Sequence record: PZ019085.1
Source of the DNA: a phage
Reading direction: 5' to 3' (one strand)
Length of the DNA: 64,000 bases
The notes beneath the pieces are model-generated. The model worked only from the letters and a program-made list of their open reading frames with translations. It made no database searches and was not told the DNA's origin. Below are positions 25,636 to 64,000 of the stretch, piece after piece; the first letter of the stretch is position 1; the number at the start of each line of letters is the position of its first letter. Made by a program: the position numbers and the translations under genes.

Positions 25636-25707
25636 TATCTCGTGCTTTAAGATAGGTCTCTAAATATTATGATATAATAGACCTATGAATTGAGCCAAGA
25701 GGTACTT

Positions 25708-26265
25708 ATGACTGAACAAAAACCTAAAAATAACTATGTGAATAATAAAGAGCTTCTCGCCGCTATAATCGAGTGGAAAAAGGAGCTCTTAAATAATAAA
25801 GACCCAAACAAAATTATTCGTCAGAATGATACCATCGGTTTAGCAATTATGCTTATTGCCGAAGGCCTGTCTAAACGTTTCAACTTTTCAGGATATACCC
25901 AGTCTTGGAAGCAGGAGATGATTGCAGATGGGATTGAAGCCTCTATTAAGGGACTTCATAATTTCGACGAAACTAAGTACAATAACCCACATGCATACAT
26001 AACTCGAGCTTGTTTTAATGCTTTTGTCCAACGTATCAAAAAAGAACGTAAGGAAGTTGCAAAGAAATATAGTTACTTCGTTCATAATGTCTACGACAGT
26101 CATGACGATGATATGGTAGCGTTAGTAGATGAAACGTTTATTCAAGACATCTACGATAAAATGACGCATTATGAAGAATCCGCTTATAAAGCTCCTGGGG
26201 CTGAAAAGAAGGAAGTTGTTAGCGATTCGCCTAGTTTGGATTTTTTATATGAGGATGACAATTGA
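25708..26265 (+). CDS. 55: Late-transcription sigma factor gp55
   Basis: [35 protein letters not shown]... matches T4 gp55. Confidence 0.95.
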
Positions 26266-27253: not shown

Positions 27254-28273
27254 ATGAAAATTTTAAATTTAGGTGATTGGCATTTAGGTGTTAAAGCCGA
27301 TGATGAGTGGGTTCAATCCATTCAGTTGGATGGAATTAAGCAGGCGATAGAATATTCTAAGAAAAATGGAATTACTACATGGATTCAATACGGCGATATT
27401 TTTGATGTGCGAAAAGCAATCACGCATAAAACTATGGAGTTCGCACGTGAAATAGTTCAAATGCTTGATGATGCTGGTATTACCCTACATACTGTTGTAG
27501 GAAACCATGATATGCACTTTAAAAATACTTTAACTCCAAACGCTTCTACTGAGCTTTTAGCTAAATATCCTAATGTTAAAGTATATGATAAGCCTACTAC
27601 AGTAGATTTTGACGGATGTTTGATTGATTTAATTCCTTGGATGTGCGAAGAAAATACTGGTGAAATCTTAGAGCACATCAAGACTTCTTCTGCTGCGTAT
27701 TGTGTTGGGCACTGGGAACTGAATGGCTTTTATTTCTATAAAGGAATGAAGTCTCATGGGCTTGAACCTGATTTCTTAAAGACCTATAAACAAGTCTGGT
27801 CTGGCCACTTCCACACAATCTCTGAAGCTGCTAACGTCAAATATATTGGGACACCATGGACCCTTACTGCAGGCGATGAGAACGACCCACGCGGATTCTG
27901 GGTATTTGACACTGATGTTGAACGTATGGAATTTATTCCTAATGAAACAACATGGCATCGACGAATCACTTATCCGTTTAAAGGCAAAATCAATTATTCT
28001 GATTATACTAATCTAGCCGTACGTGTTATAGTATCAGAAATTGATTCAGAGTTGACTAAGTTTGAATCTGAACTTGAAAAAGTAGTTCACTCTCTTCGTA
28101 TGGTTTCTAAAGTTGATAACAGTGTTGAATCTGATGACGACCAGGAAATCGAGATTAAATCACTTCAAGATATCATTAAAGAATATATTGACGCGATTCC
28201 AGATATCTCAGACGAAGACAGAGAAGCGCTGGTCAAATATTCCAACGAACTTTATATTGAGGCAACACAATGA
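27254..28273 (+). CDS. 47: Recombination nuclease subunit gp47 (Mre11/SbcD-like)
   Basis: Phosphoesterase motifs GDWHLG, GDIFD, GNHD. Confidence 0.9.
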   Translation: MKILNLGDWHLGVKADDEWVQSIQLDGIKQAIEYSKKNGITTWIQYGDIFDVRKAITHKTMEFAREIVQMLDDAGITLHTVVGNHDMHFKNTLTPNASTELLAKYPNVKVYDKPTTVDFDGCLIDLIPWMCEENTGEILEHIKTSSAAYCVGHWELNGFYFYKGMKSHGLEPDFLKTYKQVWSGHFHTISEAANVKYIGTPWTLTAGDENDPRGFWVFDTDVERMEFIPNETTWHRRITYPFKGKINYSDYTNLAVRVIVSEIDSELTKFESELEKVVHSLRMVSKVDNSVESDDDQEIEIKSLQDIIKEYIDAIPDISDEDREALVKYSNELYIEATQ

Positions 28274-33894: not shown

Positions 33895-36606
33895 ATGAAA
33901 GAATTTTACTTAACGGTTGAACAGATTGGTGATTCAATTTTTGAACGTTACATCGATTCTAACGGCCGTGAACGTACTCGTGAAGTAGAATATAAACCAT
34001 CACTGTTTGCTCATTGTCCAGAAAGTCAGGCTACGAAATATTTCGATATCTACGGTAAGCCGTGTACTCGTAAGTTGTTCGCTAATATGCGTGATGCCTC
34101 CCAATGGATTAAACGCATGGAAGATATCGGACTTGAAGCACTTGGCATGGACGATTTCAAATTGGCGTATTTGTCTGACACTTATAACTATGAAATCAAA
34201 TACGACCATACAAAAATTCGTGTGGCCAACTTCGACATCGAAGTAACATCTCCTGACGGGTTCCCTGAGCCGTCACAAGCAAAACATCCGATTGATGCTA
34301 TCACCCATTATGACTCAATTGACGACAGGTTCTACGTATTTGATCTATTGAATTCTCCATATGGTAATGTGGAAGAATGGTCTATTGAAATCGCTGCTAA
34401 GCTTCAAGAACAAGGTGGTGATGAAGTTCCATCTGAAATTATCGATAAAATCATTTATATGCCATTCGATAATGAAAAAGAATTGTTGATGGAATATCTC
34501 AACTTCTGGCAACAGAAAACTCCTGTCATTTTGACTGGATGGAACGTTGAGTCATTTGATATTCCATATGTGTATAACCGAATCAAGAATATTTTTGGCG
34601 AATCTACTGCGAAACGTTTATCACCACATCGTAAAACTCGTGTTAAAGTTATCGAAAACATGTATGGTTCTCGTGAAATCATCACATTGTTTGGTATCTC
34701 TGTTCTTGATTATATTGACCTTTACAAAAAATTCTCTTTCACGAACCAACCGTCATATTCTCTGGATTACATTTCAGAATTTGAATTGAACGTTGGTAAA
34801 CTGAAATATGACGGCCCTATTTCTAAGCTTCGTGAAAGCAATCACCAACGATATATTTCTTATAACATCATCGACGTATATCGTGTATTGCAAATTGACG
34901 CTAAACGCCAGTTCATTAACTTGAGTTTGGACATGGGTTATTATGCTAAAATTCAGATTCAATCTGTGTTCAGTCCAATTAAAACTTGGGATGCTATTAT
35001 TTTTAATAGCCTTAAAGAACAAAACAAGGTGATTCCACAAGGTCGTTCTCACCCGGTTCAACCTTATCCTGGCGCTTTTGTTAAGGAACCTATTCCAAAT
35101 CGATACAAATATGTGATGAGCTTCGACCTCACATCTCTGTATCCAAGTATTATTCGCCAAGTGAATATTAGCCCAGAAACAATAGCAGGAACGTTTAAAG
35201 TAGCTCCATTGCATGATTATATTAACGCTGTTGCTGAACGTCCTTCTGATGTGTACAGTTGCTCTCCTAACGGCATGATGTATTATAAAGACCGTGATGG
35301 TGTAGTTCCAACTGAAATCACTAAAGTCTTTAATCAACGTAAAGAACATAAAGGTTATATGCTTGCAGCTCAACGTAATGGTGAAATAATTAAAGAGGCG
35401 TTGCATAATCCTAATCTTTCTGTTGATGAACCATTAGACGTTGATTATCGTTTTGACTTCACTGACGAGATTAAAGAAAAGATTAAAAAGTTGTCTGCTA
35501 AATCTCTTAATGAAATGTTGTTTAGAGCTCAACGTACTGAAGTTGCAGGTATGACTGCACAAATTAACCGTAAATTGCTTATCAACTCACTTTATGGTGC
35601 ACTTGGCAACGTTTGGTTCCGTTATTATGATTTACGTAATGCTACTGCAATCACAACATTCGGGCAAATGGCTTTACAGTGGATTGAACGTAAAGTTAAT
35701 GAATATCTGAATGAAGTTTGTGGTACAGAAGGCGAAGCTTTCGTTCTATATGGTGATACAGACTCCATTTACGTATCTGCTGATAAAATTATTGATAAGG
35801 TTGGTGAATCTAAATTCCGTGATACCAACCATTGGGTAGACTTCTTAGATAAGTTTGCACGTGAACGTATGGAACCAGCTATTGATAGAGGTTTCCGTGA
35901 AATGTGTGAATACATGAACAATAAACAACACTTAATGTTCATGGACCGAGAAGCTATCGCTGGACCTCCGCTTGGTTCTAAAGGTATTGGCGGATTTTGG
36001 ACAGGTAAGAAACGTTATGCATTAAACGTGTGGGATATGGAAGGAACCAGATACGCTGAACCTAAGCTTAAAATCATGGGTCTCGAAACACAGAAATCTT
36101 CGACCCCTAAAGCAGTACAGAAAGCTCTTAAAGAATGTATTCGTCGTATGCTTCAAGAAGGTGAAGAATCGTTACAAGAATATTTTAAAGAGTTTGAAAA
36201 AGAATTCCGTCAATTGAATTATATTAGCATCGCGTCGGTATCTTCTGCTAATAACATCGCTAAATATGATGTTGGTGGATTCCCTGGTCCTAAATGCCCG
36301 TTCCATATTCGTGGAATTCTAACGTATAACCGGGCTATCAAAGGTAATATCGATGCACCACAAGTTGTAGAAGGTGAAAAAGTATATGTTCTGCCTTTAC
36401 GTGAAGGAAACCCATTCGGTGATAAATGTATCGCATGGCCTTCTGGCACTGAAATCACAGATTTAATTAAAGACGACGTACTTCATTGGATGGACTACAC
36501 TGTTCTCCTTGAGAAGACATTTATTAAACCACTTGAAGGATTCACATCAGCAGCGAAACTCGATTACGAGAAGAAAGCATCTCTGTTCGATATGTTCGAT
36601 TTTTGA
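33895..36606 (+). CDS. 43: DNA polymerase gp43 (family B)
   Basis: 903 aa; exonuclease motifs FDIE and YNIIDV, polymerase motifs DLTSLYPSI and YGDTDS; N-terminus MKEFYLTVEQIGDSIFERYIDSNGRERTREV recalled as RB69-type gp43. Confidence 0.97.
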   Translation: MKEFYLTVEQIGDSIFERYIDSNGRERTREVEYKPSLFAHCPESQATKYFDIYGKPCTRKLFANMRDASQWIKRMEDIGLEALGMDDFKLAYLSDTYNYEIKYDHTKIRVANFDIEVTSPDGFPEPSQAKHPIDAITHYDSIDDRFYVFDLLNSPYGNVEEWSIEIAAKLQEQGGDEVPSEIIDKIIYMPFDNEKELLMEYLNFWQQKTPVILTGWNVESFDIPYVYNRIKNIFGESTAKRLSPHRKTRVKVIENMYGSREIITLFGISVLDYIDLYKKFSFTNQPSYSLDYISEFELNVGKLKYDGPISKLRESNHQRYISYNIIDVYRVLQIDAKRQFINLSLDMGYYAKIQIQSVFSPIKTWDAIIFNSLKEQNKVIPQGRSHPVQPYPGAFVKEPIPNRYKYVMSFDLTSLYPSIIRQVNISPETIAGTFKVAPLHDYINAVAERPSDVYSCSPNGMMYYKDRDGVVPTEITKVFNQRKEHKGYMLAAQRNGEIIKEALHNPNLSVDEPLDVDYRFDFTDEIKEKIKKLSAKSLNEMLFRAQRTEVAGMTAQINRKLLINSLYGALGNVWFRYYDLRNATAITTFGQMALQWIERKVNEYLNEVCGTEGEAFVLYGDTDSIYVSADKIIDKVGESKFRDTNHWVDFLDKFARERMEPAIDRGFREMCEYMNNKQHLMFMDREAIAGPPLGSKGIGGFWTGKKRYALNVWDMEGTRYAEPKLKIMGLETQKSSTPKAVQKALKECIRRMLQEGEESLQEYFKEFEKEFRQLNYISIASVSSANNIAKYDVGGFPGPKCPFHIRGILTYNRAIKGNIDAPQVVEGEKVYVLPLREGNPFGDKCIAWPSGTEITDLIKDDVLHWMDYTVLLEKTFIKPLEGFTSAAKLDYEKKASLFDMFDF

Positions 36607-36646
36607 TATAATGCCAAGGACGGCCAACTAATTAAATGAGAGAAAT

Positions 36647-37282
36647 ATGAAAACTACACCAATCACTATCGCTATTGACGCAATCGTAAAACAAGCTTCA
36701 TCTCTTGCCACTATGGCTAAAGTAATTAGTCAAAACCCTGCCCGATATAATGCTATTCTTGAAACTCTTCGTCGCCCTGGACTGAGTAATTATGAAAGCC
36801 GAGTAATTATTACAGGTGTTGGTAAGAATGCTAATATTGCAACTAAAGCTTCTGAGACATTTGCTTCATTAGGTATTCCTAGCATGTATTTGAACACTGG
36901 GCATTATTCTCATGGTGACGCAGGATTTATTGCACCTAATGATGTATTAGTTCACATCAGTCGTTCTGGTAAGACTGAAGAAATGATAGGTGTTGCTAAA
37001 CATCTTCGTATGATTCGTCCTCAGGTTAAACAGATTCTGTTACATTGTAACCCTGACATTCCACAAGAATACGAAGCTCTTTTTGATTATACGTTCTGTA
37101 CCGGTATCGCGGTAGAAGTTGACGAGAACTCTTTAGCTCCGACGATGTCTACTACATTGTTGTTAGCGCTTATCGATACGTTCGCTATCAACCTTTCATC
37201 TGAACGTGGATTTACCTCTAATGATTTCCTTAAGTTCCATCCAGGCGGTGCACTAGGTGCCATGTTACGAGGCGAGCAATGA
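36647..37282 (+). CDS. SIS-domain sugar-phosphate isomerase (KdsD/GutQ/GmhA-like)
   Basis: ITGVGKNANIATKASETFASLGIPSMYLNTG...HGD...VLVHISRSGKTEEM matches the SIS-domain pattern of arabinose-5-phosphate or phosphoheptose isomerases; no CBS domain. Confidence 0.8.
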   Translation: MKTTPITIAIDAIVKQASSLATMAKVISQNPARYNAILETLRRPGLSNYESRVIITGVGKNANIATKASETFASLGIPSMYLNTGHYSHGDAGFIAPNDVLVHISRSGKTEEMIGVAKHLRMIRPQVKQILLHCNPDIPQEYEALFDYTFCTGIAVEVDENSLAPTMSTTLLLALIDTFAINLSSERGFTSNDFLKFHPGGALGAMLRGEQ

Positions 37283-37422
37283 AAGCAATAACAATAGGAC
37301 TTTTACTATTGATGCTTGTCATGACTATCTATTGGAGCTTAACGGCTCCAGTAATGATTCCAACACTTGTAATTGGATGGATTATGATTGGACTACAAGC
37401 AAAGTATGAATGCTTTAACTAG
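37279..37422 (+). CDS. Possible 47-aa two-TM membrane peptide
   Basis: MKAITIGLLLLMLVMTIYWSLTAPVMIPTLVIGWIMIGLQAKYECFN; ATGA-type overlap with the SIS gene stop. Confidence 0.3.
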   Translation: MKAITIGLLLLMLVMTIYWSLTAPVMIPTLVIGWIMIGLQAKYECFN

Positions 37423-37463
37423 AATAGTGTACAATACTCCTACTTACCAATGAGGACCACAAC

Positions 37464-39149
37464 ATGAAAAAAGCTGTTATTCTTGGTGCTGGACTGGCAA
37501 CTCGTTTGTATCCAATAACGCATCATATTCCTAAGGTGCTTGTTAACTATAAACAAGACACTATTCTGAGCAATTTGTATACAATTTATTCTGACCTTGG
37601 CGCAGATGAAATTATTGTAGTAGTTCATTCAAAATTTGCTGAAACTGTTCGAGCTTATTGTGAGCAAGAAGGGTTCAATGTGACTATTCGTACAGTTGAT
37701 GAAGCATACGGATCTGCTTATGCTCTTGCTAAATTACACAAAGATTTAGACGGCCATAATGTAATTGTTAACTGGTGCGATATTATTCCTGATTTTGGTT
37801 CATGGTCTTGGAATGTTAACGCAATCTATGTTAAGGGTGACGAATGTCGGTATAATTTCGACGGTGAAAATATCACTAACGTAGGTTCAACAGGTGGTAA
37901 TGTTGTAGGAATTTATCAGTTCAAAGACTGGGAATTCTATATGGGTTCTACCGATGAGGAAATTCATGAATACTGCAAAGGACGTGATTTCGTAGAATTC
38001 CTTTACAGCGGCGCATTCAATAAATCAGAGCTTATGAATATAATTGATTTAGGTGATATGCCTAAACTTGAAAAAGCTCATGAAGTTCGTGAACTTAATC
38101 GTAGTTTTAATGCAGTTGAAATTGGTGAAGAAACTGTAACTAAATTCGCATTAACCGAACAGGGCCGAGCTCTTCAGAAAGATGAGATTTCATGGTATCT
38201 TAAAGTGAAATCAGATTCAGTTCCTCAGTTAGTTTCTGTTAATGAAAATAACTTTGAAATGGAACGCATTAAAGGTAAGCCGGCATTTGAATATATTAAA
38301 TCCAAATCAAGTCTTGCTCGTCCACAAATTGTTGATGCAATTTTAGATGCACTGAAATTCAGCACAGACACTTATTTTGTAAGTCCTGAAACTGTTCGTC
38401 GTGATTTCACTAAAGAATTCTATACGAAAGTTATTGATCGTTGTGAAAGTATTCAACCATTGATTGATTCATTTGGTAAAATCACACATGTGAACTACAC
38501 TAAGATTGGACGTCTGAAGCCAATGCTGAAACAAGCTTTAGAACACCTTATTCGTTATCATAACCGTTCTCAGGGACAGTACTCTGTTATTCATGGTGAC
38601 CCTAACTTCAGTAATACTATGATTACTGATAACGGCGAAGTCAAGTTTATCGACCCTCGTGGATATTTTGGTGAAACCAAGATTTACGGGCCAAAATTGT
38701 ATGACGAAGCTAAAGTGCTTTATGCTGTTTCAGGTTATGATGAATTCAATGCTAATCCGACCTGGGGACAGTTTACTATTGATGAAACAACTTGTAATGT
38801 GACTATTAACATCAATCCATTAATTTACAAATATGGAAAGATGAGTTCGTTTAACGAGTATCATCATTTGGCGGTGGCAATTATCTGGATTGCATTGGGT
38901 GGTTATTTCAAGAATAATCCACTTAAAGCGGTAGCCGCATATTATAAAGGTATGGAACTTCTGACTAAGCAATTACGTAACATGGGCCGTGTACTTCAGG
39001 ACGGCTCTATTAGTTATGACGTAGCAGAACCTGTAACGGCTACTCTGATTACAAAAAATCCTGGTAAATGGGTACTAACTGATAAAGAAACTGGTGTTTC
39101 TTATCGTCCAATCGGTGGCGATATCACTCATCAATGGGAACGAATCTAA
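37464..39149 (+). CDS. Bifunctional sugar-1-phosphate nucleotidylyltransferase / APH-like sugar kinase
   Basis: N-terminal ILGAGLATRL (RmlA/GlmU-type NTP-transferase G-x-G-T-R motif); C-terminal HGDPNFSNTMI ... FIDPRG (phosphotransferase/choline-kinase-like catalytic loop). Confidence 0.75.
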   Translation: MKKAVILGAGLATRLYPITHHIPKVLVNYKQDTILSNLYTIYSDLGADEIIVVVHSKFAETVRAYCEQEGFNVTIRTVDEAYGSAYALAKLHKDLDGHNVIVNWCDIIPDFGSWSWNVNAIYVKGDECRYNFDGENITNVGSTGGNVVGIYQFKDWEFYMGSTDEEIHEYCKGRDFVEFLYSGAFNKSELMNIIDLGDMPKLEKAHEVRELNRSFNAVEIGEETVTKFALTEQGRALQKDEISWYLKVKSDSVPQLVSVNENNFEMERIKGKPAFEYIKSKSSLARPQIVDAILDALKFSTDTYFVSPETVRRDFTKEFYTKVIDRCESIQPLIDSFGKITHVNYTKIGRLKPMLKQALEHLIRYHNRSQGQYSVIHGDPNFSNTMITDNGEVKFIDPRGYFGETKIYGPKLYDEAKVLYAVSGYDEFNANPTWGQFTIDETTCNVTININPLIYKYGKMSSFNEYHHLAVAIIWIALGGYFKNNPLKAVAAYYKGMELLTKQLRNMGRVLQDGSISYDVAEPVTATLITKNPGKWVLTDKETGVSYRPIGGDITHQWERI

Positions 39150-39535
39150 TGCATCGTGTAGAAAACATGCTTAATCTTTGTTTTGATGTCGACGATTGTA
39201 TAACAGAGTGGAATAACAATCGTGATTACGTGAACTTCAAGCCAGACGTCGAAATGGTGTCTGCCATTAATGCCCTGTATGATGCAGGGCATACCATAAC
39301 GCTTTACACTGCTCGTGGTATGAAGTCAGTAGGTCCTGGTCGTATAGCAATTGACATTCTCCCAAGTCTGATTCAGAACTTGGCAAACATTGGCTTGAAG
39401 TACCATAATTTGCTAACACATAAACCAGTATATGATTGGATTATCGACGACAAAGCTATGCGTCCCGACGAATTCAAAGCTCTTATGAATAAAGGCGAAT
39501 TCGAAACATTTAAATCATATAAACCGAATCTATAA
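39149..39535 (+). CDS. HAD-superfamily phosphatase-like protein
   Basis: FDVDDCIT near the N-terminus, TARG, WIIDDKA; size typical of KdsC/GmhB-type small HAD phosphatases. Confidence 0.55.
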   Translation: MHRVENMLNLCFDVDDCITEWNNNRDYVNFKPDVEMVSAINALYDAGHTITLYTARGMKSVGPGRIAIDILPSLIQNLANIGLKYHNLLTHKPVYDWIIDDKAMRPDEFKALMNKGEFETFKSYKPNL

Positions 39536-39589
39536 TAATTTAAGTAAGACCTGCAAAAACCATCGCATAAATTAACGCGAGATGCAAAA

Positions 39590-40750
39590 ATGAATACTTT
39601 TAAAATCGGAACGAATTTTGATTTAGCTCTTCTTGATAAAATCGTAGAGCTCAATAAAACTTATCCTAATAGCTTGATAAACGAAGTATACGGCTCTACA
39701 AGAGAAATGGCTTTTGTAGCAGCCAGACCTGATTTTAGGCTTCCTGACGTTGACAAAAAGATGTTAGAAGATTACGTTAAACGTTGTAATGAATTAGGTA
39801 TTTGCTTTAACTATACACTCAACACGATAAATCCCGGTTCAAAAAGAGAACTAGTTGAGTGGAAGAAGAAAGCTATTCAGGATTATGTTCAGTATCTTTG
39901 GTCAATAGGCGTATGGCGTATTACTATCGCTAACCCTGTTGTTATGGAAATTGTTCGTGAAGTCAATAAAGACATTGAGATTGAAGTTTCAACAATTCTA
40001 CATGTCGATGCTGTAACTCAAATCAAATACTTACATGACCAATACAATATCAAAAAGGTCTGCTGTGGAATTCATAAGAACCGTTCAGTTTCTTTCCTGA
40101 AGCGTGCAGCAGAGTTTTGCAATAAGAACAATATAATATTTGAAGTTCTTGTAAATGAGTTCTGTTCTAATGCTGGTAAAGGGTATACAACACATTGTAG
40201 CTATCGTGACTCTTGCTATATTTTCCATAGTACTGATGTTACAGCTGATGATGCTAAATCCTTAAACGGGTATCCAATGCAACACTGCATTAAAGCTCGT
40301 GATACAGACCCATTTAACTGGTTGAGAACTCGTTTTGTTCGTCCTCAAGATTTGAAACTTTATAATGATATTGGTATCACTCAATTCAAAGTTTCAGGAC
40401 GTACAGGTAGCACAGACTACATTTTGAAAGTTCTTGAAGCATACGCTTCTGAAAAGTTTGAAGGTAATTTGTTAGAACTGTGGAAGCCTTTAGAGACTAT
40501 TTTCACTCTTGAAAACGAAACTGAGTTTTCACATACAGTAAATATTGAAACCTCTTTGTTAGATGGCTTTTTAGAAAAAAGGTGGTTCAGGCATCCAGAT
40601 TTCGATTGTGCTAATGAAATCTGTGGGACGACGTGTACATATTGTGAAAGATATTATAAACGTCAGTTATCTAAAAACGGGTTAGCAGAAAACTCTATAT
40701 CTATTATTGATATAACTAACTCTGATGACGCTTTGAGGTACCCAGAATGA
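39590..40750 (+). CDS. Cys-rich hypothetical enzyme in the sugar island
   Basis: 386 aa with multiple conserved-looking Cys clusters (CANEICGTTCTYC, EFCSNAGKGYTTHCSY); fold not assignable by eye. Confidence 0.55.
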   Translation: MNTFKIGTNFDLALLDKIVELNKTYPNSLINEVYGSTREMAFVAARPDFRLPDVDKKMLEDYVKRCNELGICFNYTLNTINPGSKRELVEWKKKAIQDYVQYLWSIGVWRITIANPVVMEIVREVNKDIEIEVSTILHVDAVTQIKYLHDQYNIKKVCCGIHKNRSVSFLKRAAEFCNKNNIIFEVLVNEFCSNAGKGYTTHCSYRDSCYIFHSTDVTADDAKSLNGYPMQHCIKARDTDPFNWLRTRFVRPQDLKLYNDIGITQFKVSGRTGSTDYILKVLEAYASEKFEGNLLELWKPLETIFTLENETEFSHTVNIETSLLDGFLEKRWFRHPDFDCANEICGTTCTYCERYYKRQLSKNGLAENSISIIDITNSDDALRYPE

Positions 40751-41030
40751 TTTCTAGAAAAACTTTTAACCACCAACTTAATGAAGAGATTTTGACTATG
40801 AAACTGAACACTAACGAACAAATTCTTAAAAAGGCCCTTATGGGGGCCTGTTTGAAACCAAAGCGGCTAAAGTGATTAAAGAACCTGTTCAATTGGAATA
40901 CTACGCTGATGCATTTCTTCATAGTGTTCTTGGAAGTATCGATGCTGAAGCTTTACGGTATATCAACACTGCCAAGAAATTCAAATAAGCTTTACGAATC
41001 GAGTATATAATAAATTGTATTGAGGTAAAC

Positions 41031-41747
41031 ATGGGAAAACATAACACAATGAAATATATCAAAGCCGCAGATTTTCAAACCGCATTTAAAGCAGTCAATC
41101 GTGAAATTTTAGAAAACCCGGAATTCGTAACTGATTCTCGTATTGGACGTTGTAATGAAATTGGGTCTATGACAGTAGTTGTTGACACTCCATCGTCATT
41201 CAAAATGACCGACCCACGTATTAACCGCATCTCTTATGAATATGCCGAAGACTTCTGGAAGTTTATGATTTCTGGTGGTACTGATGCAGAAGAAGCGTTT
41301 AAGGCATATCCTAATGTCGCTAAATTTATTTCTAAACCAAAATCGGATGCTTTGCCTGCAAACTTCAACACTTTCTATGGTCCTCGCATTGCGGCCCAAT
41401 TACCAACTCTTCTAAAAGAACTTAAAGAGAAACCTAACTCTCGAAGAGTTGTGTTCCAAATTCTAGAAAGTTCAGATCAGGCTTTGCTTGATTCGGACGA
41501 AACACTTGAATATCCATGTACTGACTCAGTGACTTATTATATTCGTGATGGTAAGCTTTATACCCACTGTCATATGCGTTCTCAGAACTGTGCTGTTGTT
41601 ATGCAGTTGGATTTTTATCTCCAAGGAAAATTACTTCATTATATCGCTAACGAATGCGGTGTAGAAGTAGGTGATTATACTCATACCATGGTAAGTGCCC
41701 ATGTGTTTGAACGTGATTTTGATTATGTTAAAGGATTCCTTGACTAA
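41031..41747 (+). CDS. 42: dCMP hydroxymethylase (thymidylate-synthase superfamily)
   Basis: PCTDSVTYYIRDGK ... MRSQNCAV resembles the catalytic Cys region of T4 gp42; syntenic position. Confidence 0.75.
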   Translation: MGKHNTMKYIKAADFQTAFKAVNREILENPEFVTDSRIGRCNEIGSMTVVVDTPSSFKMTDPRINRISYEYAEDFWKFMISGGTDAEEAFKAYPNVAKFISKPKSDALPANFNTFYGPRIAAQLPTLLKELKEKPNSRRVVFQILESSDQALLDSDETLEYPCTDSVTYYIRDGKLYTHCHMRSQNCAVVMQLDFYLQGKLLHYIANECGVEVGDYTHTMVSAHVFERDFDYVKGFLD

Positions 41748-42646
41748 TGGCTATTTTCCGCGTACCTATCTTGAGTATGCGGTCTTATGAAACTGGTCAG
41801 TATGCTATCCTTAAGGATGGCAACTTCCAACTTCATTTGCACCGTGCTAATCCAGGCGATGTGATTACATATCCACGTAATGCATCTGATATTAAAGAAT
41901 GTGAACGTCTTTTCCCGGAATTTAAGTTTGTTCCATTATGGTATAAAGATAACGCGTATAACACTCGTAAATATTTCTGGTCTGAAAATGAATTTGTGGT
42001 TGATTCATTAATTGCTTATTATGATTGTGATTTTCTAATCACAGATATCACTGGATATGATGGCGCTTTTGACGTAGAATTCAATTTCAATATCACTGCA
42101 GACCCTAATAAACCACGTTTTTATATTGATGAATTCTTAAAAACCGACATGTTGTCTGTTAATCGTTCACTTCAAACTACTGTGTTGAATGAACGTCAAA
42201 AAGAAGTGCTGGTTAACGCAGGTGCAGATGGTAATAAGATTATCGTAACGCAGAAAGTTATACGTCCTTCCGTCATGCAGCGTCTTGTAGGTGATTTGGC
42301 TCCTATTCATCTAGATGGTATTTTTCATCCATTTCGAATTAGTGACCCATGCTATCGTTTTGAACAAGTTGTTGAATGCGCAATTCAATTAGGTCAACCG
42401 CTTTATATAACTGATCCAAATAATAGTTTCGACAGAAATAAGTATCCTGAAGAAGCGCTGATTCGAATTTTTAATCCAACTAAAACTGAGTACTATCAAA
42501 TTCTTAAAGGACGTCCGAAGATTCAATATTTCGAAAATCCTGAAGAAGTATTCCATCCAGGTCTTGGTGAGTTCATCTACTTTAATGCTTTAATTTCTTC
42601 ACCGTATAATATACCTAAATACGAAGATGTCGTAATCGAGGAATAA
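41747..42646 (+). CDS. Hypothetical protein at the position of T4 beta-glucosyltransferase
   Basis: 299 aa; no match to T4 beta-gt noticed. Confidence 0.55.
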   Translation: MAIFRVPILSMRSYETGQYAILKDGNFQLHLHRANPGDVITYPRNASDIKECERLFPEFKFVPLWYKDNAYNTRKYFWSENEFVVDSLIAYYDCDFLITDITGYDGAFDVEFNFNITADPNKPRFYIDEFLKTDMLSVNRSLQTTVLNERQKEVLVNAGADGNKIIVTQKVIRPSVMQRLVGDLAPIHLDGIFHPFRISDPCYRFEQVVECAIQLGQPLYITDPNNSFDRNKYPEEALIRIFNPTKTEYYQILKGRPKIQYFENPEEVFHPGLGEFIYFNALISSPYNIPKYEDVVIEE

Positions 42647-42647
42647 A

Positions 42648-43196
42648 ATGGCTAAAATTATTTTAGTAGACGGCCCGGATAATGCTGGTAAAACAACTTT
42701 CATTAATGACATAATGGAAATTAGTGAAAGATATGTAAAGATTGATTTCCCTAAACGAACAGTTGATGGACGTTTCGATGTTAAGTCTCGAAATGAAGTT
42801 GGCTGTTTCGAAACGATGTTGAATTATTTAGACCCTACTAAGATTTATCTGTTAGACCGTGGATATATTAGTAACTGGGTTTATGGACGTATTCGACAAG
42901 ATGTGGACTCGGTTCTTGACGTTTATGAACAGGATTATGTTCGTCTTTGCCAAAACCATGATGTGTTCACAATTATTTTAACACGTAACGAAATGACTGA
43001 AAGTTTTGAAGACGACCTTATTACTTTGTCTTCATTCGGTTTTAATACAGTCATTTCATATTTTGAAGAGTTTGCAATTCATAACAAAATCCAAACGTAT
43101 CAATTACTTAATCATGATGGTGCTAACAAAGTTATAGGATTTAATGCAAGCGAACGTAATTATTTGATTACAGAAATCATTAAATGGGCTCGTTAA
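42648..43196 (+). CDS. P-loop nucleotide kinase (thymidylate/dNMP kinase-like)
   Basis: Walker A DGPDNAGKTT and LLDRGYIS (DRY-like motif of the TMPK fold). Confidence 0.55.
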   Translation: MAKIILVDGPDNAGKTTFINDIMEISERYVKIDFPKRTVDGRFDVKSRNEVGCFETMLNYLDPTKIYLLDRGYISNWVYGRIRQDVDSVLDVYEQDYVRLCQNHDVFTIILTRNEMTESFEDDLITLSSFGFNTVISYFEEFAIHNKIQTYQLLNHDGANKVIGFNASERNYLITEIIKWAR

Positions 43197-43294
43197 GAGC
43201 CATTTAAAGTTTTAAATGCTGTATAACCCTTAGTATATAATCATCTTATCCTTTAAACATGAGTAAAATATAATGATGCCTATGGAAAAATACA

Positions 43295-44467
43295 ATGTCT
43301 GATTTAAAATCTCGTCTGATTAAAGCTTCTACTTCTAAAATGACTGCAGACTTGACTAAGTCTAAGCTGTTTAATAATCGTGATGAAGTCCCTACTCGTA
43401 TTCCGATGTTGAATATTGCATTAGGTGGTGCACTGAATGCAGGGTTGCAATCAGGCTTAACTATTTTTGCTGCTCCTTCTAAACACTTTAAAACGTTGTT
43501 TGGACTAACTATGGTTGCAGCATATATGAAGAAATATAAAGATGCAATTTGTTTGTTCTATGATTCAGAATTTGGTGCTTCAGAATCTTATTTTCGTTCA
43601 ATGGGTGTTGATTTAGACCGTGTAGTTCATACTCCGATTCAATCTGTCGAACAACTTAAAGTTGATATGACTAATCAGCTTGACGCGATTGAACGCGGTG
43701 ATAAAGTTATTATCTTTATCGATTCAATCGGTAATACTGCATCTAAGAAAGAAACCGAAGATGCGTTGAACGAGAAAGTTGTAGGTGATATGTCTCGTGC
43801 TAAGGCACTTAAATCTCTTTTCCGTATTGTGACCCCGTATCTGACTATTAAAGATATCCCGTGTGTTGCAATCAACCATACAGCAATGGAAATCGGCGGA
43901 CTATATCCTAAAGAGATTATGGGTGGTGGTACAGGTATTCTTTACTCTGCTAACACCGTATTCTTTATCTCTAAACGTCAGGTTAAAGAAGGTACAGAAT
44001 TAACCGGTTATGACTTCACGTTGAAAGCAGAAAAATCTCGTACAGTTAAAGAGAAATCTACTTTCCCGATCACGGTTAATTTTGATGGCGGTATTGACCC
44101 ATTCAGTGGCTTGTTAGAAATGGCAACTGAAATCGGTTTTGTGGTTAAGCCTAAAGCTGGTTGGTATGCTCGTGAATTCCTTGACGAAGAAACAGGTGAA
44201 ATGATTCGTGAAGAAAAATCATGGCGTGCTAAAGCTACTGATTGTGTAGAATTCTGGGGACCATTGTTTAAACACAAACCTTTCCGAGATGCAATTGAAA
44301 CTAAATATAAACTAGGTGCTATCTCTTCTATTAAAGAAGTTGATGACGCTGTTAATGACCTTATTAATTGCAAAGCAACAACTAAAGTTCCGGTTAAAAC
44401 TTCTGATGCTCCATCCGCAGCAGATATAGAAAACGACCTTGACGAAATGGAAGATTTCGATGAATAA
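43295..44467 (+). CDS. uvsX: RecA-like recombinase UvsX
   Basis: Matches T4 UvsX; Walker A-like APSKHFKT; acidic C-terminal tail. Confidence 0.95.
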   Translation: MSDLKSRLIKASTSKMTADLTKSKLFNNRDEVPTRIPMLNIALGGALNAGLQSGLTIFAAPSKHFKTLFGLTMVAAYMKKYKDAICLFYDSEFGASESYFRSMGVDLDRVVHTPIQSVEQLKVDMTNQLDAIERGDKVIIFIDSIGNTASKKETEDALNEKVVGDMSRAKALKSLFRIVTPYLTIKDIPCVAINHTAMEIGGLYPKEIMGGGTGILYSANTVFFISKRQVKEGTELTGYDFTLKAEKSRTVKEKSTFPITVNFDGGIDPFSGLLEMATEIGFVVKPKAGWYAREFLDEETGEMIREEKSWRAKATDCVEFWGPLFKHKPFRDAIETKYKLGAISSIKEVDDAVNDLINCKATTKVPVKTSDAPSAADIENDLDEMEDFDE

Positions 44468-44801
44468 TCTCGATGATTTAAATCTAGAAATCGTTGATGA
44501 ATCCCCTTCTTCGGAAGGGGAAGACATTCGCAAAGAACGAGTGTTTAATGAATCTCTTAAAATTATCCGTTCAGCAATGGAAAATGTCATTCAAGAGATT
44601 CTGATTACGCTTGAAGATGGTTCTCATCATATAGTCTATATTACAAAACTAGACTGGGTTGATGGTAAAATCGTAATGGACTTTGCAGTTCTTGACCAGG
44701 ACAGAAAAGCAGAACTTGCACCACATGTTGAAAAATGTGTTACAATGCAAGTACAACAAGCTTTTAATGAACGGACCAAGAAAAAATTTAAATTCTTTTA
44801 A
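44460..44801 (+). CDS. Hypothetical protein at the position of T4 gp40
   Basis: Position between uvsX and 41; ATGA-type overlap with the uvsX stop. Confidence 0.4.
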   Translation: MNNLDDLNLEIVDESPSSEGEDIRKERVFNESLKIIRSAMENVIQEILITLEDGSHHIVYITKLDWVDGKIVMDFAVLDQDRKAELAPHVEKCVTMQVQQAFNERTKKKFKFF

Positions 44802-61732: not shown

Positions 61733-63550
61733 ATGATTAAAAATGAAATTAAGGTATTGTCAGATGTAGAACATATTAAGAAACGTAGTGGTATGTATAT
61801 TGGTTCTTCGGCCAAAGAAGCACATGAGCGTTTTTTGTTCGGTAAATATCAACAAGTTGAATATGTTCCTGGTCTGGTTAAATTAATCGATGAGATTATT
61901 GACAACTCGGTTGATGAAGCTATTCGTACATCATTTAAGTTTGCAAATAAAATTGATGTGCAAATTAAAAATAATCAAGTTTCGGTGGAAGATAACGGAC
62001 GTGGTATTCCTCAAGGTTTAGTTACCGACCAAACAGGTGAACAAATTCCTGGGCCTGTAGCAGCCTGGACTATTCCAAAGGCCGGTGGTAACTTTGGTGA
62101 TGACTCTGAACGCAAGACCGGTGGTATGAACGGCGTCGGGAGTAGTTTAACCAATATCTTCTCTACGTTGTTTACAGGCATTACGTCAGATGGCGAAAAT
62201 GAAATCACTGTTAACTGTTCAAATGGAATGGAAAACAAATCATGGTCTTCTAAGAAATCTAAAGGTAAAGGCACTAAAGTAATCTTCACTCCTGATTTCA
62301 CTTCATTTGAAGAGCATAATTTATCTCAAATTTATTTAGATATTACTTTAGACCGACTTCAAACATTGGCAGTCGTTTATCCTGATATCAAGTTCACATT
62401 TAATGGTAAAAAGGTTGATGGTAATTTTAAACGATTTGCTAAACAATTTGGTGAAGATAACATCATTCAAGAAAATGATAAAGTCTCTATAGCATTCACA
62501 ACATCACCAGATGGCTTCCGTCATTTAACTTATGTGAATAACATCCATACTAAAAACGGCGGTCATCATGTTGAATGTGTAATGGATGATATCTGCGAAC
62601 ATCTTTTGCCTGGTATCAAAAAGAAATATAAGGGTATTGAAGTCACTAAAGCTCGTGTTAAAGAATGCCTCACAATGTTGATGTTTATTAGAGACATGAG
62701 CAACATGCGTTTTGATTCTCAGACTAAAGAACGTTTAACGTCAACGTACGGTGATATTCGTAATCATATCCAATTAGATGCTAAGAAAATTGCTCAGGCA
62801 CTTCTTAAAAACGAAGCCTTGATTATGCCTATTGTTGAAGCAGCATTAGCTCGTAAATTGGCGGCAGAAAAGGCTGCAGAAACTAAAGCGGCTAAAAAGG
62901 CAACTAAAGCTAAGGTTCATAAGCATATTAAAGCTAACCAATGTGGTAAAGATGCAGATACGACATTGTTCTTAACAGAAGGTGATTCGGCAATTGGTTA
63001 TCTCATTGATGTTCGTGACCGTGAACTACATGGTGGATTCCCATTACGTGGTAAGGTGATGAATAGCTGGGGTATGTCATATGCTGATATGATGAAGAAC
63101 AAAGAGCTCTTTGATATCTGTGCTATCACAGGTCTTATTCTTGGTGAAAAGGCAGAGAATACGAACTATCGTAATATTGCAATTATGACCGATGCCGATC
63201 ATGACGGTCTTGGAAGTATCTATCCGGCTTTGCTTGCTTTCTTTAGTAATTGGCCTGAATTGTTTGAACAAGGACGTATTCGCTTTGTTAAAACGCCTGT
63301 AATTATTGCACAAATTGGCAAAACTCAAAAATGGTTTTATACTGTAGCTGAGTATGAAGAAGTTAAAGATACACTGCCTAAGCATAGTATTCGATACATC
63401 AAGGGATTAGGCTCCCTTGAAAAGTCAGAATATCGTGAAATGATTCAGAACCCTGTGTACGACGTAGTTAAACTTCCTGAAAATTGGAAAGAACTCTTTG
63501 AAATGTTGATGGGTGACGATTCAGAACTTCGTAAAGAATGGATGTCCTAA
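61733..63550 (+). CDS. 39: Type II DNA topoisomerase ATPase/Toprim subunit (gp39, uninterrupted)
   Basis: GHKL ATPase motifs (IDNSVDEA, GRGIP, GGMNGVG) and Toprim (LTEGDSA); single 605-aa ORF. Confidence 0.9.
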   Translation: MIKNEIKVLSDVEHIKKRSGMYIGSSAKEAHERFLFGKYQQVEYVPGLVKLIDEIIDNSVDEAIRTSFKFANKIDVQIKNNQVSVEDNGRGIPQGLVTDQTGEQIPGPVAAWTIPKAGGNFGDDSERKTGGMNGVGSSLTNIFSTLFTGITSDGENEITVNCSNGMENKSWSSKKSKGKGTKVIFTPDFTSFEEHNLSQIYLDITLDRLQTLAVVYPDIKFTFNGKKVDGNFKRFAKQFGEDNIIQENDKVSIAFTTSPDGFRHLTYVNNIHTKNGGHHVECVMDDICEHLLPGIKKKYKGIEVTKARVKECLTMLMFIRDMSNMRFDSQTKERLTSTYGDIRNHIQLDAKKIAQALLKNEALIMPIVEAALARKLAAEKAAETKAAKKATKAKVHKHIKANQCGKDADTTLFLTEGDSAIGYLIDVRDRELHGGFPLRGKVMNSWGMSYADMMKNKELFDICAITGLILGEKAENTNYRNIAIMTDADHDGLGSIYPALLAFFSNWPELFEQGRIRFVKTPVIIAQIGKTQKWFYTVAEYEEVKDTLPKHSIRYIKGLGSLEKSEYREMIQNPVYDVVKLPENWKELFEMLMGDDSELRKEWMS

Positions 63551-63592: not shown

Positions 63593-64000
63593 ATGAAAGT
63601 TATGTTTATCCCATCTCGTGCAGTCCCATTTAATCCTGACCGTGTACAAGGTGGTCTTGAGGCAGTACATTTAAATGTGTTGAAATATCTTGTGTCCATC
63701 GGTGCTGATATTGATTATATCGGCTTTGATAATGACACGTTTGGTGACTGGAAAGTTACACACCATCCTGTTGGTCATCTGACTAAATTCAGTCTAGGTA
63801 TGAGTTATACTATGGCCCGTAAGATTGTTGAACTAGCCGGCATCCATGAATACGATTTTGTTGTTACTATGGAACCGACTAAACTAACCGTTCAGGCAAT
63901 TAAAGACGCAGGTCTCTCTAAAGTTCATAAGAATTTTATGGCTACGCCGTTTGAACCGGTGTCTCGTGGTATTGTTCAAATTTGGGATCAGACTATCCAG
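63593..64000 (+). CDS. Glycosyltransferase, GT-B/GT4-like (3' partial, runs off the window)
   Basis: MKVMFIPSRAVPFNPDRVQGGLEAVHLNVLKYLVSIGADIDYIGF resembles the GT4 N-terminal domain; ATG 63593 after aagg; no stop within the window. Confidence 0.55.
   Translation, partial: MKVMFIPSRAVPFNPDRVQGGLEAVHLNVLKYLVSIGADIDYIGFDNDTFGDWKVTHHPVGHLTKFSLGMSYTMARKIVELAGIHEYDFVVTMEPTKLTVQAIKDAGLSKVHKNFMATPFEPVSRGIVQIWDQTIQ

Follow-up and report, generated by a model that had tools for sequence, protein, structure and literature searches.

What do the two genes that fill the slot of the T4 beta-glucosyltransferase (beta-gt) in this phage encode, and to which DNA modification do they belong? The window, i.e., the whole stretch of 64,000 nucleotides analyzed here, is a Mosigvirus sequence ~98% identical to phages HY126 and Bas46 and the RB69 group; He et al. 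reportedly worked on HY126 in 2026. The 7.1-kb region around the locus shows 98 to 98.7% identity to Mosigvirus genomes. The order of genes in T4 is 42, b-gt, segA, uvsX, and that in the window is a synthase homologue (41031-41747), a 299-aa ORF (41747-42646), a 182-aa ORF (42648-43196), and uvsX (43295-44467), so that the two ORFs lie between the gene 42 homologue and uvsX, exactly where the first-pass annotation had placed them. Its statement that no alpha-gt-sized gene is found between genes 55 and 47 holds as well: the ORFs between gp55 (25690-26265) and gp47 (27254-28273) are all of 107 aa or less, in a slot that in T4 is occupied by the 400-aa a-gt. The 299-aa and 182-aa ORFs are real genes, with relatives in 349 and 344 phage records, respectively. 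The three genes at the center of this analysis are as follows.

41031 to 41747, plus strand: thymidylate synthase homologue of 238 aa, flavin/O2-dependent 5-hydroxy-dCMP synthase, orthologue of RB69 gp48 (Pfam Thymidylat_synt, 1.9e-15)
41747 to 42646, plus strand: compact glycosyltransferase of 299 aa with a predicted GT-B fold, orthologue of RB69 gp46:47, DLP3 gp79, and Thanatos TH1_063, predicted to transfer the first, base-proximal arabinose to 5-hydroxycytosine
42648 to 43196, plus strand: P-loop nucleotide kinase of 182 aa with the thymidylate kinase (TMPK) fold and 5-hydroxy-dCMP as its putative substrate, orthologue of RB69 gp45, DLP3 gp78, and Thanatos TH1_064

The three genes are translationally coupled. 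The TAA stop codon of the synthase gene overlaps the ATG of the 299-aa gene (TAATG), and a single base separates the stop codon of the latter from the ATG of the kinase gene, which is closely preceded by GAGGAA. The region 36500-44600 shows no enrichment of promoter-like or terminator-like sites (23 found versus 29.4 expected). The gene order in HY126 is identical to that in the window, and the two kinases share 98.4% identity. This locus has already been described for RB69, HY126, Bas46, and DLP3 (PMC13326640), and the DNA of HY126, Bas46, and the RB69 group contains arabinosylated 5-hydroxycytosine rather than glucosyl-hydroxymethylcytosine (Lee et al., NAR 2026, PMC13326640). The cluster, the base chemistry, and most of the gene roles are already known, having been published in 2025-2026 for phages ~98% identical to the window. 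With a probability of about 65%, positions 41031-43196 represent a three-gene cassette that forms the core of the published arabinosyl-5-hydroxycytosine pathway and comprises a synthase, a kinase that serves the base side, and a glycosyltransferase (GT) that acts on DNA. The earlier suggestion that both proteins handle a modified nucleotide agrees with their membership in the gene cluster of this pathway (PMC13326640).

The nature of the base is indicated by the synthase. Its motif reads HMRSQNCAVVMQLD (D169N plus N177D) versus NMRSNDVVFGFRND in T4 gp42, with Asn at the position of Asp169 of Escherichia coli ThyA and Asp at that of Asn177, which is the residue rule given for 5-hydroxy-dCMP synthases in PMC13326640. 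It matches PDB entries 9iqc/9ir2 with an E value of 1.6e-161, being nearly identical to the solved HY126 enzyme, and the respective activity has been shown for RB69 gp48 and DLP3 gp80 (PMC13326640). Judging from these residues, the window “gene 42” codes for a flavin/O2-dependent 5-hydroxy-dCMP synthase. Given the D169N/N177D signature and the near-identity to the HY126 enzyme, the base is 5-hydroxycytosine and not hydroxymethylcytosine, and the assays with hm-dCMP that the first-pass annotation suggested would use the wrong substrate.

The 299-aa protein had been described as unrelated to beta-gt and devoid of GT features. At the sequence level, this is correct: Pfam produced no match for the window protein and no GT family at E ≤ 1 for any of the 52 family members, NCBIfam had nothing for it, the family profile had no match among PDB sequences, and BLASTP against T4 beta-gt gave an E value of 3.6. 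The predicted structure, however, is a high-confidence GT-B model with two Rossmann-like domains and a cleft between them, and its best matches are retaining GT4-type enzymes, so that the identity of this protein as a probable GT is visible only from the fold. The “unrelated” protein of the first-pass annotation is thus the predicted first arabinosyltransferase. Like T4 beta-gt, the 299-aa protein is encoded immediately downstream of the gene 42 homologue, yet it shows no detectable sequence similarity or close structural similarity to that enzyme.

Orthology and gene adjacency provide a more specific assignment. The window protein is 99.0 to 100% identical to the other Mosigvirus copies (Bas46, bas46_0141, 99.0%), 47.5% identical to the Thanatos protein TH1_063, and ~46% identical to those of the Acinetobacter DLP-group phages; the HY126 copy (XAN60474) is found at the same position as in the window. 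By orthology and by its location next to the D169N synthase, it belongs to the RB69 gp46:47 family, “arabinosyltransferase 1,” and differs in nothing of substance from RB69 gp46:47 and DLP3 gp79, except that gp46:47 is split by a sequencing error in the RB69 GenBank record, whereas the window copy is intact. Thanatos carries one sugar per base, RB69 two, and DLP3 three (PMC13326640), and the number of GTs equals the number of sugars in each case (1/1, 2/2, and 3/3). The retaining GT4-type matches also fit the alpha linkage reported for the base-proximal sugar (PMC13326640). The fold, the synteny, and these gene counts lead to the prediction that the 299-aa protein is the first, base-proximal arabinosyltransferase. 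The genes predicted to supply the sugar, and the beginning of the gene for the second transferase, are also present in the window.

36647 to 37282, plus strand: arabinose-5-phosphate isomerase, RB69 gp55 orthologue, first step of UDP-arabinose supply (PHROG 5670, 2.4e-116; PMC13326640)
37464 to 39149, plus strand: bifunctional sugar kinase/nucleotidyltransferase, RB69 gp52:53, analogous to HY126 AfhE (Pfam NTP_transferase, 8.4e-10; weak kinase-family matches; PHROG 4098; PMC13326640)
39134 to 39535, plus strand: HAD-type sugar-phosphate phosphatase, RB69 gp51, analogous to HY126 AfhF (PHROG 1238, 5.3e-43; TIGR01689, 4.3e-13, below cutoff; PMC13326640)
63593 to 64000, plus strand: second arabinosyltransferase (RB69 gp3/bas46_0103), N-terminal 136 codons, truncated where the window ends; in translation it agrees with bas46_0103, “putative hmC-arabinosyltransferase”

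A different activity has been reported for the Thanatos protein, which produced UDP-xylose from UTP and xylose-1-phosphate in vitro (PMC12838424). As TH1_063 is a true orthologue (47.5% identity, same position), the 299-aa protein could by the same token be a UDP-pentose pyrophosphorylase and not a transferase. Such a role appears very improbable: the predicted fold is GT-B and not that of a nucleotidyltransferase, Thanatos would be left with no GT for its single sugar, and a nucleotidyltransferase domain is already present in the 561-aa bifunctional protein of the cluster, whose homologue AfhE of HY126 is reported to have UDP-arabinose pyrophosphorylase activity (PMC13326640). The UDP-xylose could stem from a retaining GT-B enzyme that, as a side activity, works in reverse with phosphate as the acceptor (UDP + sugar-1-P -> UDP-sugar + Pi), which is conceivable because the GT4 family includes sugar phosphorylases, or from a co-purified host enzyme.

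The 182-aa protein was described as a P-loop kinase with TMPK-like motifs, and this description is borne out by its P-loop, GPDNAGKT (G9-T16), and by D70-R71-G-Y73, in agreement with the TMPK pattern GxxxxGK[ST] and the Arg of DR(Y/H/F). We take the P-loop with its Asp, the FPKR motif, and DR-x-Y to be the features that resemble those of TMPKs. All of its best structural matches are thymidylate kinases, and some annotation pipelines label it as such. Across the wide family, with relatives that are 12 to 20% identical, the P-loop Lys (K15) and the Arg of the DR motif (R71) are the sole invariant residues. The kinase shares the P-loop NMP kinase fold with the thymidylate kinases (PF02223, TIGR00041) and the T4 gene 1 kinase, which phosphorylates dTMP; neither in structure nor in sequence does it closely resemble T4 gp1. 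It scores below the cutoffs of both curated models, with 12.3 bits against PF02223 (gathering cutoff, 27) and 16.1 bits against TIGR00041 (83.25); PF02223 is also matched by 14 of 23 relatives, with a best E value of 2e-4. The orthologues in HY126 and Bas46 are XAN60473 and bas46_0140, and those in RB69 (gp45), DLP3 (gp78), and RL38J1 (gp214) are listed as “nucleotide kinase” without a proposed substrate (PMC13326640, Table 1).

In a sample of 40 nonredundant GT loci with flanks, in which the kinase was scored within 6 kb, it was present in 38 and adjacent to the GT gene in 31. The synthase gene was present in 36 of the 40, adjacent upstream in 32, and carried the MRSxN motif in 34. The gene order varies between genera: it is kinase-synthase-GT in Dhakavirus, the kinase comes ahead of the synthase or the GT in several uncultured phages, and in Marfavirus and Proteus phages it lies 2 to 2.8 kb upstream. 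In all of these arrangements, the kinase remains part of the cluster. The synthase-GT-kinase triad is also found in Pootjesviridae, relatives of RL38J1, a phage that uses galactose and glucose in place of arabinose (PMC13326640); since the triad is kept in a family whose member uses other sugars, the kinase appears to serve the base and not the supply of the sugar. A profile search of a large protein collection yielded six new kinase relatives, one of which, P0153, adjoins a GT, with U32 (see below) and synthase genes downstream. A candidate GT-kinase fusion that could have served as a “Rosetta stone,” the single long GT ORF L057 (551 aa), proved to have a HAD/KdsC-like N-terminal domain, not a kinase. 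The synthase, GT, and kinase genes, found in the same order in unrelated phage families, constitute a transferable cassette, which replaces T4 gene 42 and beta-gt. What this analysis adds to the published description of the RB69 gp45 family (PMC13326640) is the quantified coinheritance of the kinase, the synthase, and the first GT across phage families, along with the argument for the base and not the sugar.

These counts also bear on the idea that the kinase is a housekeeping dTMP or dNMP kinase that boosts the nucleotide supply and owes its position in the cluster to historical accident. Its structural matches and the thymidylate kinase label of some pipelines would agree with that, but the gene is found essentially only together with the D169N synthase and the 299-aa GT family, in different phage families and regardless of rearrangements, and its product fails the curated dTMP kinase models. 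Furthermore, such phages already encode a gene 1-type dNMP kinase (gp159 in RB69, gp133 in RHph_N34), and neither the GT nor the kinase HMM matched anything in T4 bases 1-50000. A housekeeping role accordingly seems distinctly unlikely.

In the favored reading of the cassette, the synthase would convert dCMP to 5-hydroxy-dCMP (5hodCMP) using flavin and O2, as its orthologues do according to the literature. The new pyrimidine dNMP, in the simplest case 5hodCMP, would be converted to the diphosphate by the kinase, a step that host kinases presumably cannot perform; T4 gene 1 follows a similar logic, whereby the phage that produces a new dNMP also supplies the kinase for it. 5-Hydroxycytosine would then enter the DNA through the NDP kinase of the host and the polymerase of the phage, and there the 299-aa enzyme is predicted to use UDP-Araf as the donor of the base-proximal alpha-D-arabinofuranose, which it attaches to the 5-hydroxyl. 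UDP-Araf would be made by the enzymes encoded upstream (isomerase, bifunctional kinase/uridylyltransferase, and phosphatase), and the second GT (the gp3 homologue at the window end) would add the second arabinose. Several observations do not sit easily with this scheme. The kinase is below the dTMP kinase cutoffs and was absent within 6 kb at 2 of the 40 loci. As the gene 1-type kinase RB69 gp159 already phosphorylates 5hodCMP (PMC13326640), a second kinase for it would be redundant, and in T4-like genomes the 182-aa protein would thus duplicate the gene 1 enzyme. The transfer step, in addition to the UDP-xylose reported for TH1_063, faces the finding that single GTs did not arabinosylate 5-hydroxycytosine-containing DNA (“data not shown”; Lee et al., PMC13326640).

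The redundancy of the kinase and the inactivity of single GTs can be read in favor of glycosylation before replication: the GT would arabinosylate 5hodCMP, the kinase would phosphorylate the arabinoside, and the polymerase would insert the glycosylated dNTP, with only the second sugar added on DNA. The second kinase would then have a substrate of its own, needed as host and gene 1 kinases would refuse the bulky 5-O-arabinosyl-dCMP. The order synthase-GT-kinase in most genera, with its overlapping stop and start codons, matches the order of the reactions, the kinase accompanies the GT also in relatives of a phage with other sugars, and Lee et al. could not tell at which level, mononucleotide or DNA, the first sugar is attached (PMC13326640). 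The in vitro result, however, could mean that the protein was inactive or lacked a partner, the latter being the case for DLP3 gp76 and gp77, which are active only in combination (PMC13326640), and gene order is a weak argument given the kinase-first arrangements in Dhakavirus and several uncultured phages. DNA and nucleotide acceptors cannot be told apart by net charge: the 299-aa family is acidic (median pI, 5.06) and T4 beta-gt basic (9.05), but the pI values of T4 alpha-gt (6.11), which acts on DNA, and of the second arabinosyltransferase (6.17) are not basic either. Glycosylation before replication is considered unlikely; if true, it would be, to our knowledge, the first of its kind.

One more neighbor of the cassette deserves attention.

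39590 to 40750, plus strand: U32-family protein (RB69 gp50), candidate oxygen-independent hydroxylase (Pfam Peptidase_U32, 42.2 bits versus a cutoff of 22.4)

This protein is the most conserved of the cluster, with at least 80% identity across genera and ten invariant cysteines. Its gene is often paired with one for chorismate mutase. Together with the chorismate mutase present in most genera, it suggests an oxygen-independent route, in which the U32 protein may be an oxygen-independent hydroxylase providing an O2-free path to 5-hydroxycytosine.

As it stands, the two-gene finding matters little, the roles being mostly published. The question of the kinase substrate is sharp and cheap to address, and its answer decides whether the first glycosylation precedes or follows replication. 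The U32 protein is rated the stronger lead: if true, an O2-independent route would explain the modified DNA of gut phages that live without O2.

The first-pass annotation had placed a 299-aa and a 182-aa protein between the gene 42 homologue and uvsX, with no alpha-gt-sized gene between genes 55 and 47, and the ORF coordinates and the contents of the gp55-gp47 interval bear this out in all details. That interval, which in T4 is occupied by the 400-aa a-gt, contains only ORFs of ≤107 aa in the window. Since the T4 gene order is 43, imm.1, imm, 42, b-gt, segA, uvsX, the 299-aa gene occupies the exact beta-gt position.

Features of the modification locus and of the regions compared with T4
25690-26265, gp55
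27254-28273, gp47
39590-40750, U32-family gene (RB69 gp50), passing the Pfam U32 threshold
40747-40986, small ORF between the U32 and synthase genes (79 aa in phage Bas46; a 42-aa ORF is left in the window)
41031-41747, + strand, ORF, thymidylate synthase homologue, 238 aa
41747-42646, + strand, 299-aa ORF, predicted glycosyltransferase (GT)
42648-43196, + strand, 182-aa ORF, P-loop kinase
43295-44467, + strand, ORF, uvsX
63593-64000, first 136 codons of the second arabinosyltransferase gene (RB69 gp3/bas46_0103, 366 aa), inside which the window ends

The synthase, GT, and kinase genes are translationally coupled: the ATG of the 299-aa ORF overlaps the synthase stop codon (TAATG), and a single base separates its own stop codon from the kinase ATG, which is preceded by GAGGAA. 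Sites resembling promoters or terminators show no enrichment in this region. Upstream lie the genes for DNA polymerase, arabinose-5-phosphate isomerase, a 561-aa protein with nucleotidyltransferase and kinase domains, a HAD phosphatase, and the U32-family protein. The second arabinosyltransferase gene, whose HY126 homologue has a solved structure (PDB 9iqz), comes just behind a fused gp39/gp60-type topoisomerase subunit gene (61733-63550). The 7.1-kb region is 98 to 98.7% identical to many RB69-group Mosigvirus genomes, including that of Bas46/ChristianSchoenbein; in HY126, another close relative, the gene order is identical and the kinase is 98.4% identical. Phages nearly identical to that of the window have reportedly been studied by He et al. 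in 2026 (HY126, “Afh” genes) and by Mahler et al. in 2025 (Bas46/47, “Aat”).

The two genes are the same as RB69 gp46:47 and gp45, and we consider it nearly certain (probability of ∼0.95) that this is the RB69-type 5-hydroxycytosine (5hoC) modification locus, a published system, so that the finding itself is already known. Thomas et al. (2018) detected arabinose in RB69 DNA and pointed out that eight genes absent from T4 form a module between the polymerase gene and uvsX (PMC6024577). Lee et al. (NAR 2026; preprint June 2025) revised this chemistry: in place of cytosine, RB69 has 5hoC bearing one or two arabinoses, the sugar being joined to C5 itself by an ether bond, and the “gene 42” homologue gp48 is a flavin-binding, O2-using 5-hydroxy-dCMP (5hodCMP) synthase, diagnosed by an Asn where E. 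coli ThyA has Asp169, whose product is phosphorylated by the gene-1 type kinase gp159 (PMC13326640). The synthase in the window, which matches PDB entries 9iqc/9ir2 with an E value of 1.6e-161, carries HMRSQNCAVVMQLD (D169N and N177D) where T4 gp42 has NMRSNDVVFGFRND; with the base belonging to the 5hoC series, hm-dCMP, earlier proposed for kinase assays, is the wrong substrate. In two distant uncultured phages, Flavodoxin_2 genes are found in the cluster, which fits the reported flavin dependence of these synthases: an FMN-dependent reductase-like gene (L007, 5739-6293) directly upstream of the D169N synthase, and another (L005, 1-123) ∼4.8 kb upstream, past the isomerase and bifunctional genes. 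The Mosigvirus cluster has no Flavodoxin_2 gene.

The earlier impression that the 299-aa protein lacks GT features holds at the level of sequence, as neither the protein nor its 52 relatives match any Pfam or NCBIfam family and the family profile matches no PDB sequence, but not at the level of predicted structure: the AlphaFold2 model built on these relatives (pLDDT of 94.6) has a GT-B fold, with retaining GT4-type enzymes as its best structural matches. We saw no similarity to T4 beta-gt and rejected a diverged beta-gt; taken with the confident model, this points to a GT of a separate lineage, and a GT role is quite probable. Retaining GT4-type matches would, by our own reasoning, fit an alpha product formed from a UDP-alpha-sugar. 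The label given to gp46:47 in Table 1 of Lee et al. is likewise “arabinosyltransferase 1,” and that of gp45 is “nucleotide kinase,” both from structure prediction only (PMC13326640). A less likely role, UDP-pentose pyrophosphorylase, is suggested by the report that TH1_063, the orthologue from Shewanella phage Thanatos, forms UDP-xylose (PMC12838424). Against this role, the fold is predicted to be GT-B, the cluster has a nucleotidyltransferase domain elsewhere, and Thanatos needs a GT. The UDP-xylose is more likely the product of a side reaction (reversal or phosphorolysis) or of a contaminant. The “UDP-xylose pyrophosphorylase” label of TH1_063 (L003:5995-6897; PMC12838424) conflicts with the GT-B fold and the later arabinosyltransferase assignment, and may propagate through databases. 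In one uncultured phage (L057:5452-7107, IMG/VR contig 3300018410_000011), a domain of ∼180 aa resembling HAD/KdsC-type sugar-phosphate phosphatases is fused to the N terminus of the GT homologue; no kinase was found within 6 kb of this GT.

The 182-aa protein, in which thymidylate-kinase-like motifs were noticed at first pass, has P-loop, FPKR, and DR-x-Y motifs; it falls short of the curated dTMP kinase thresholds. The tblastn hits to the GT came from 349 phage records and those to the kinase from 344, the genus counts being almost equal. Scanning IMG/VR with the GT profile and searching the fetched loci with GT and kinase HMMs (and phmmer for the synthase) yielded 40 GT loci, nonredundant at ∼90% identity and with at least 1.5 kb on each side. 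The kinase family lies within 6 kb of the GT in 38 of these, directly adjoining it in 31 (downstream of the GT in 30 loci, upstream in 8); a synthase homologue is present in 36, adjoins the GT on its upstream side in 32, and carries the MRSxN (D169N) motif in 34. In the most distant loci, the kinase was matched by an iterated HMM; its first iteration, built without these sequences, already gave 6/9 at E < 1e-4. Gene order varies by genus, yet the kinase remains inside the cluster: in Dhakavirus it precedes the synthase and GT, and in Marfavirus and Proteus phages it is found 2 to 2.8 kb upstream. In distant uncultured phages (GT 38% and kinase 29 to 30% identical), flavodoxin-like protein, synthase, GT, and kinase are encoded in a row, and another group has kinase, GT, probable homologues of the isomerase and the bifunctional enzyme, U32, and synthase. 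In Pootjesviridae, the synthase (MRSQN), GT (hhalign 98.9%, E value of 1e-17), and kinase adjoin a gene-1 type dNMP kinase and a dCTPase; one member, RL38J1, has galactose and glucose instead of arabinose (PMC13326640). The kinase therefore accompanies the hydroxylated base and the first GT, not arabinose supply, in line with the proposed tie to a modified nucleotide. It is no general dNMP kinase of the T4 type, and its distribution contradicts a housekeeping dTMP kinase; in T4 itself, neither the GT nor the kinase HMM found anything in bases 1-50000.

The most conserved cluster protein is U32, which keeps at least 80% identity between coliphages and Thanatos, versus 47.5% for the GT (related loci include L003:7462-8852 in Thanatos and L073:4489-5897). 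It has ten invariant cysteines, and its family profile weakly matches E. coli RlhA over the cysteine motif (hhalign 57%, E value of 1e-4). RlhA is the 23S rRNA 5-hydroxycytidine synthase and, like its U32 relatives TrhP and UbiU/V, an O2-independent hydroxylase using prephenate, which chorismate mutase produces (PMC5727448, PMC6599085, PMC10990095). In nearly all U32-bearing Straboviridae genera, a chorismate mutase of 79 to 85 aa follows U32 (Pfam CM_2 scores of 40.9 bits for the Entb_45 copy and 34.7 for the Thanatos copy; cutoff, 27), and each of the 15 ORFs resembling chorismate mutase belongs to a locus with U32, where it sits between the U32 and synthase genes. This kinship and neighborhood suggest that U32 may provide an anaerobic route to 5hoC beside the O2-dependent synthase; we found no paper proposing such a route, and Lee et al. 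label the protein only “sugar or heterocycle reductase” (PMC13326640). The U32 gene is absent from 57 of 57 Acinetobacter phage records, from GT-bearing Rhizobium phages, and from Dhakavirus-group coliphages. Unlike the ORF at the same position in other genera, the small Mosigvirus ORF has no chorismate mutase match; in the window a 2-nt insertion relative to Bas46 interrupts it (GGGGG versus GGG near 40830), and HY126 has other indels in it. Gene decay or an error in sequencing may be the cause.

In orthologous systems, the synthase converts dCMP to 5hodCMP, its coexpression with a dNMP kinase brings 5hodC into DNA, and the later arabinoses are transferred from UDP-arabinofuranose to the DNA; Lee et al. 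saw no activity of single GTs on 5hoC DNA and leave open whether the first sugar joins the mononucleotide or DNA (PMC13326640). The 299-aa GT would attach the base-proximal alpha-arabinofuranose and the kinase would phosphorylate the modified dNMP, with roughly even odds that this is 5hodCMP. Two points favor a GT acting on the nucleotide, with the kinase handling an arabinosylated dNMP: that negative result, and the fact that 5hodCMP is already served by the gene-1 kinase. We nevertheless regard this reading as unlikely given the inconstant gene order. To our knowledge, phage DNA glycosylation is post-replicative in all known cases, which also argues against it. In the simplest reading, the synthase, kinase, and GT would form a self-sufficient transferable cassette, with one gene each to make, phosphorylate, and decorate the new dNMP, and its kinase would be partly redundant with gene 1 in a T4-like genome.
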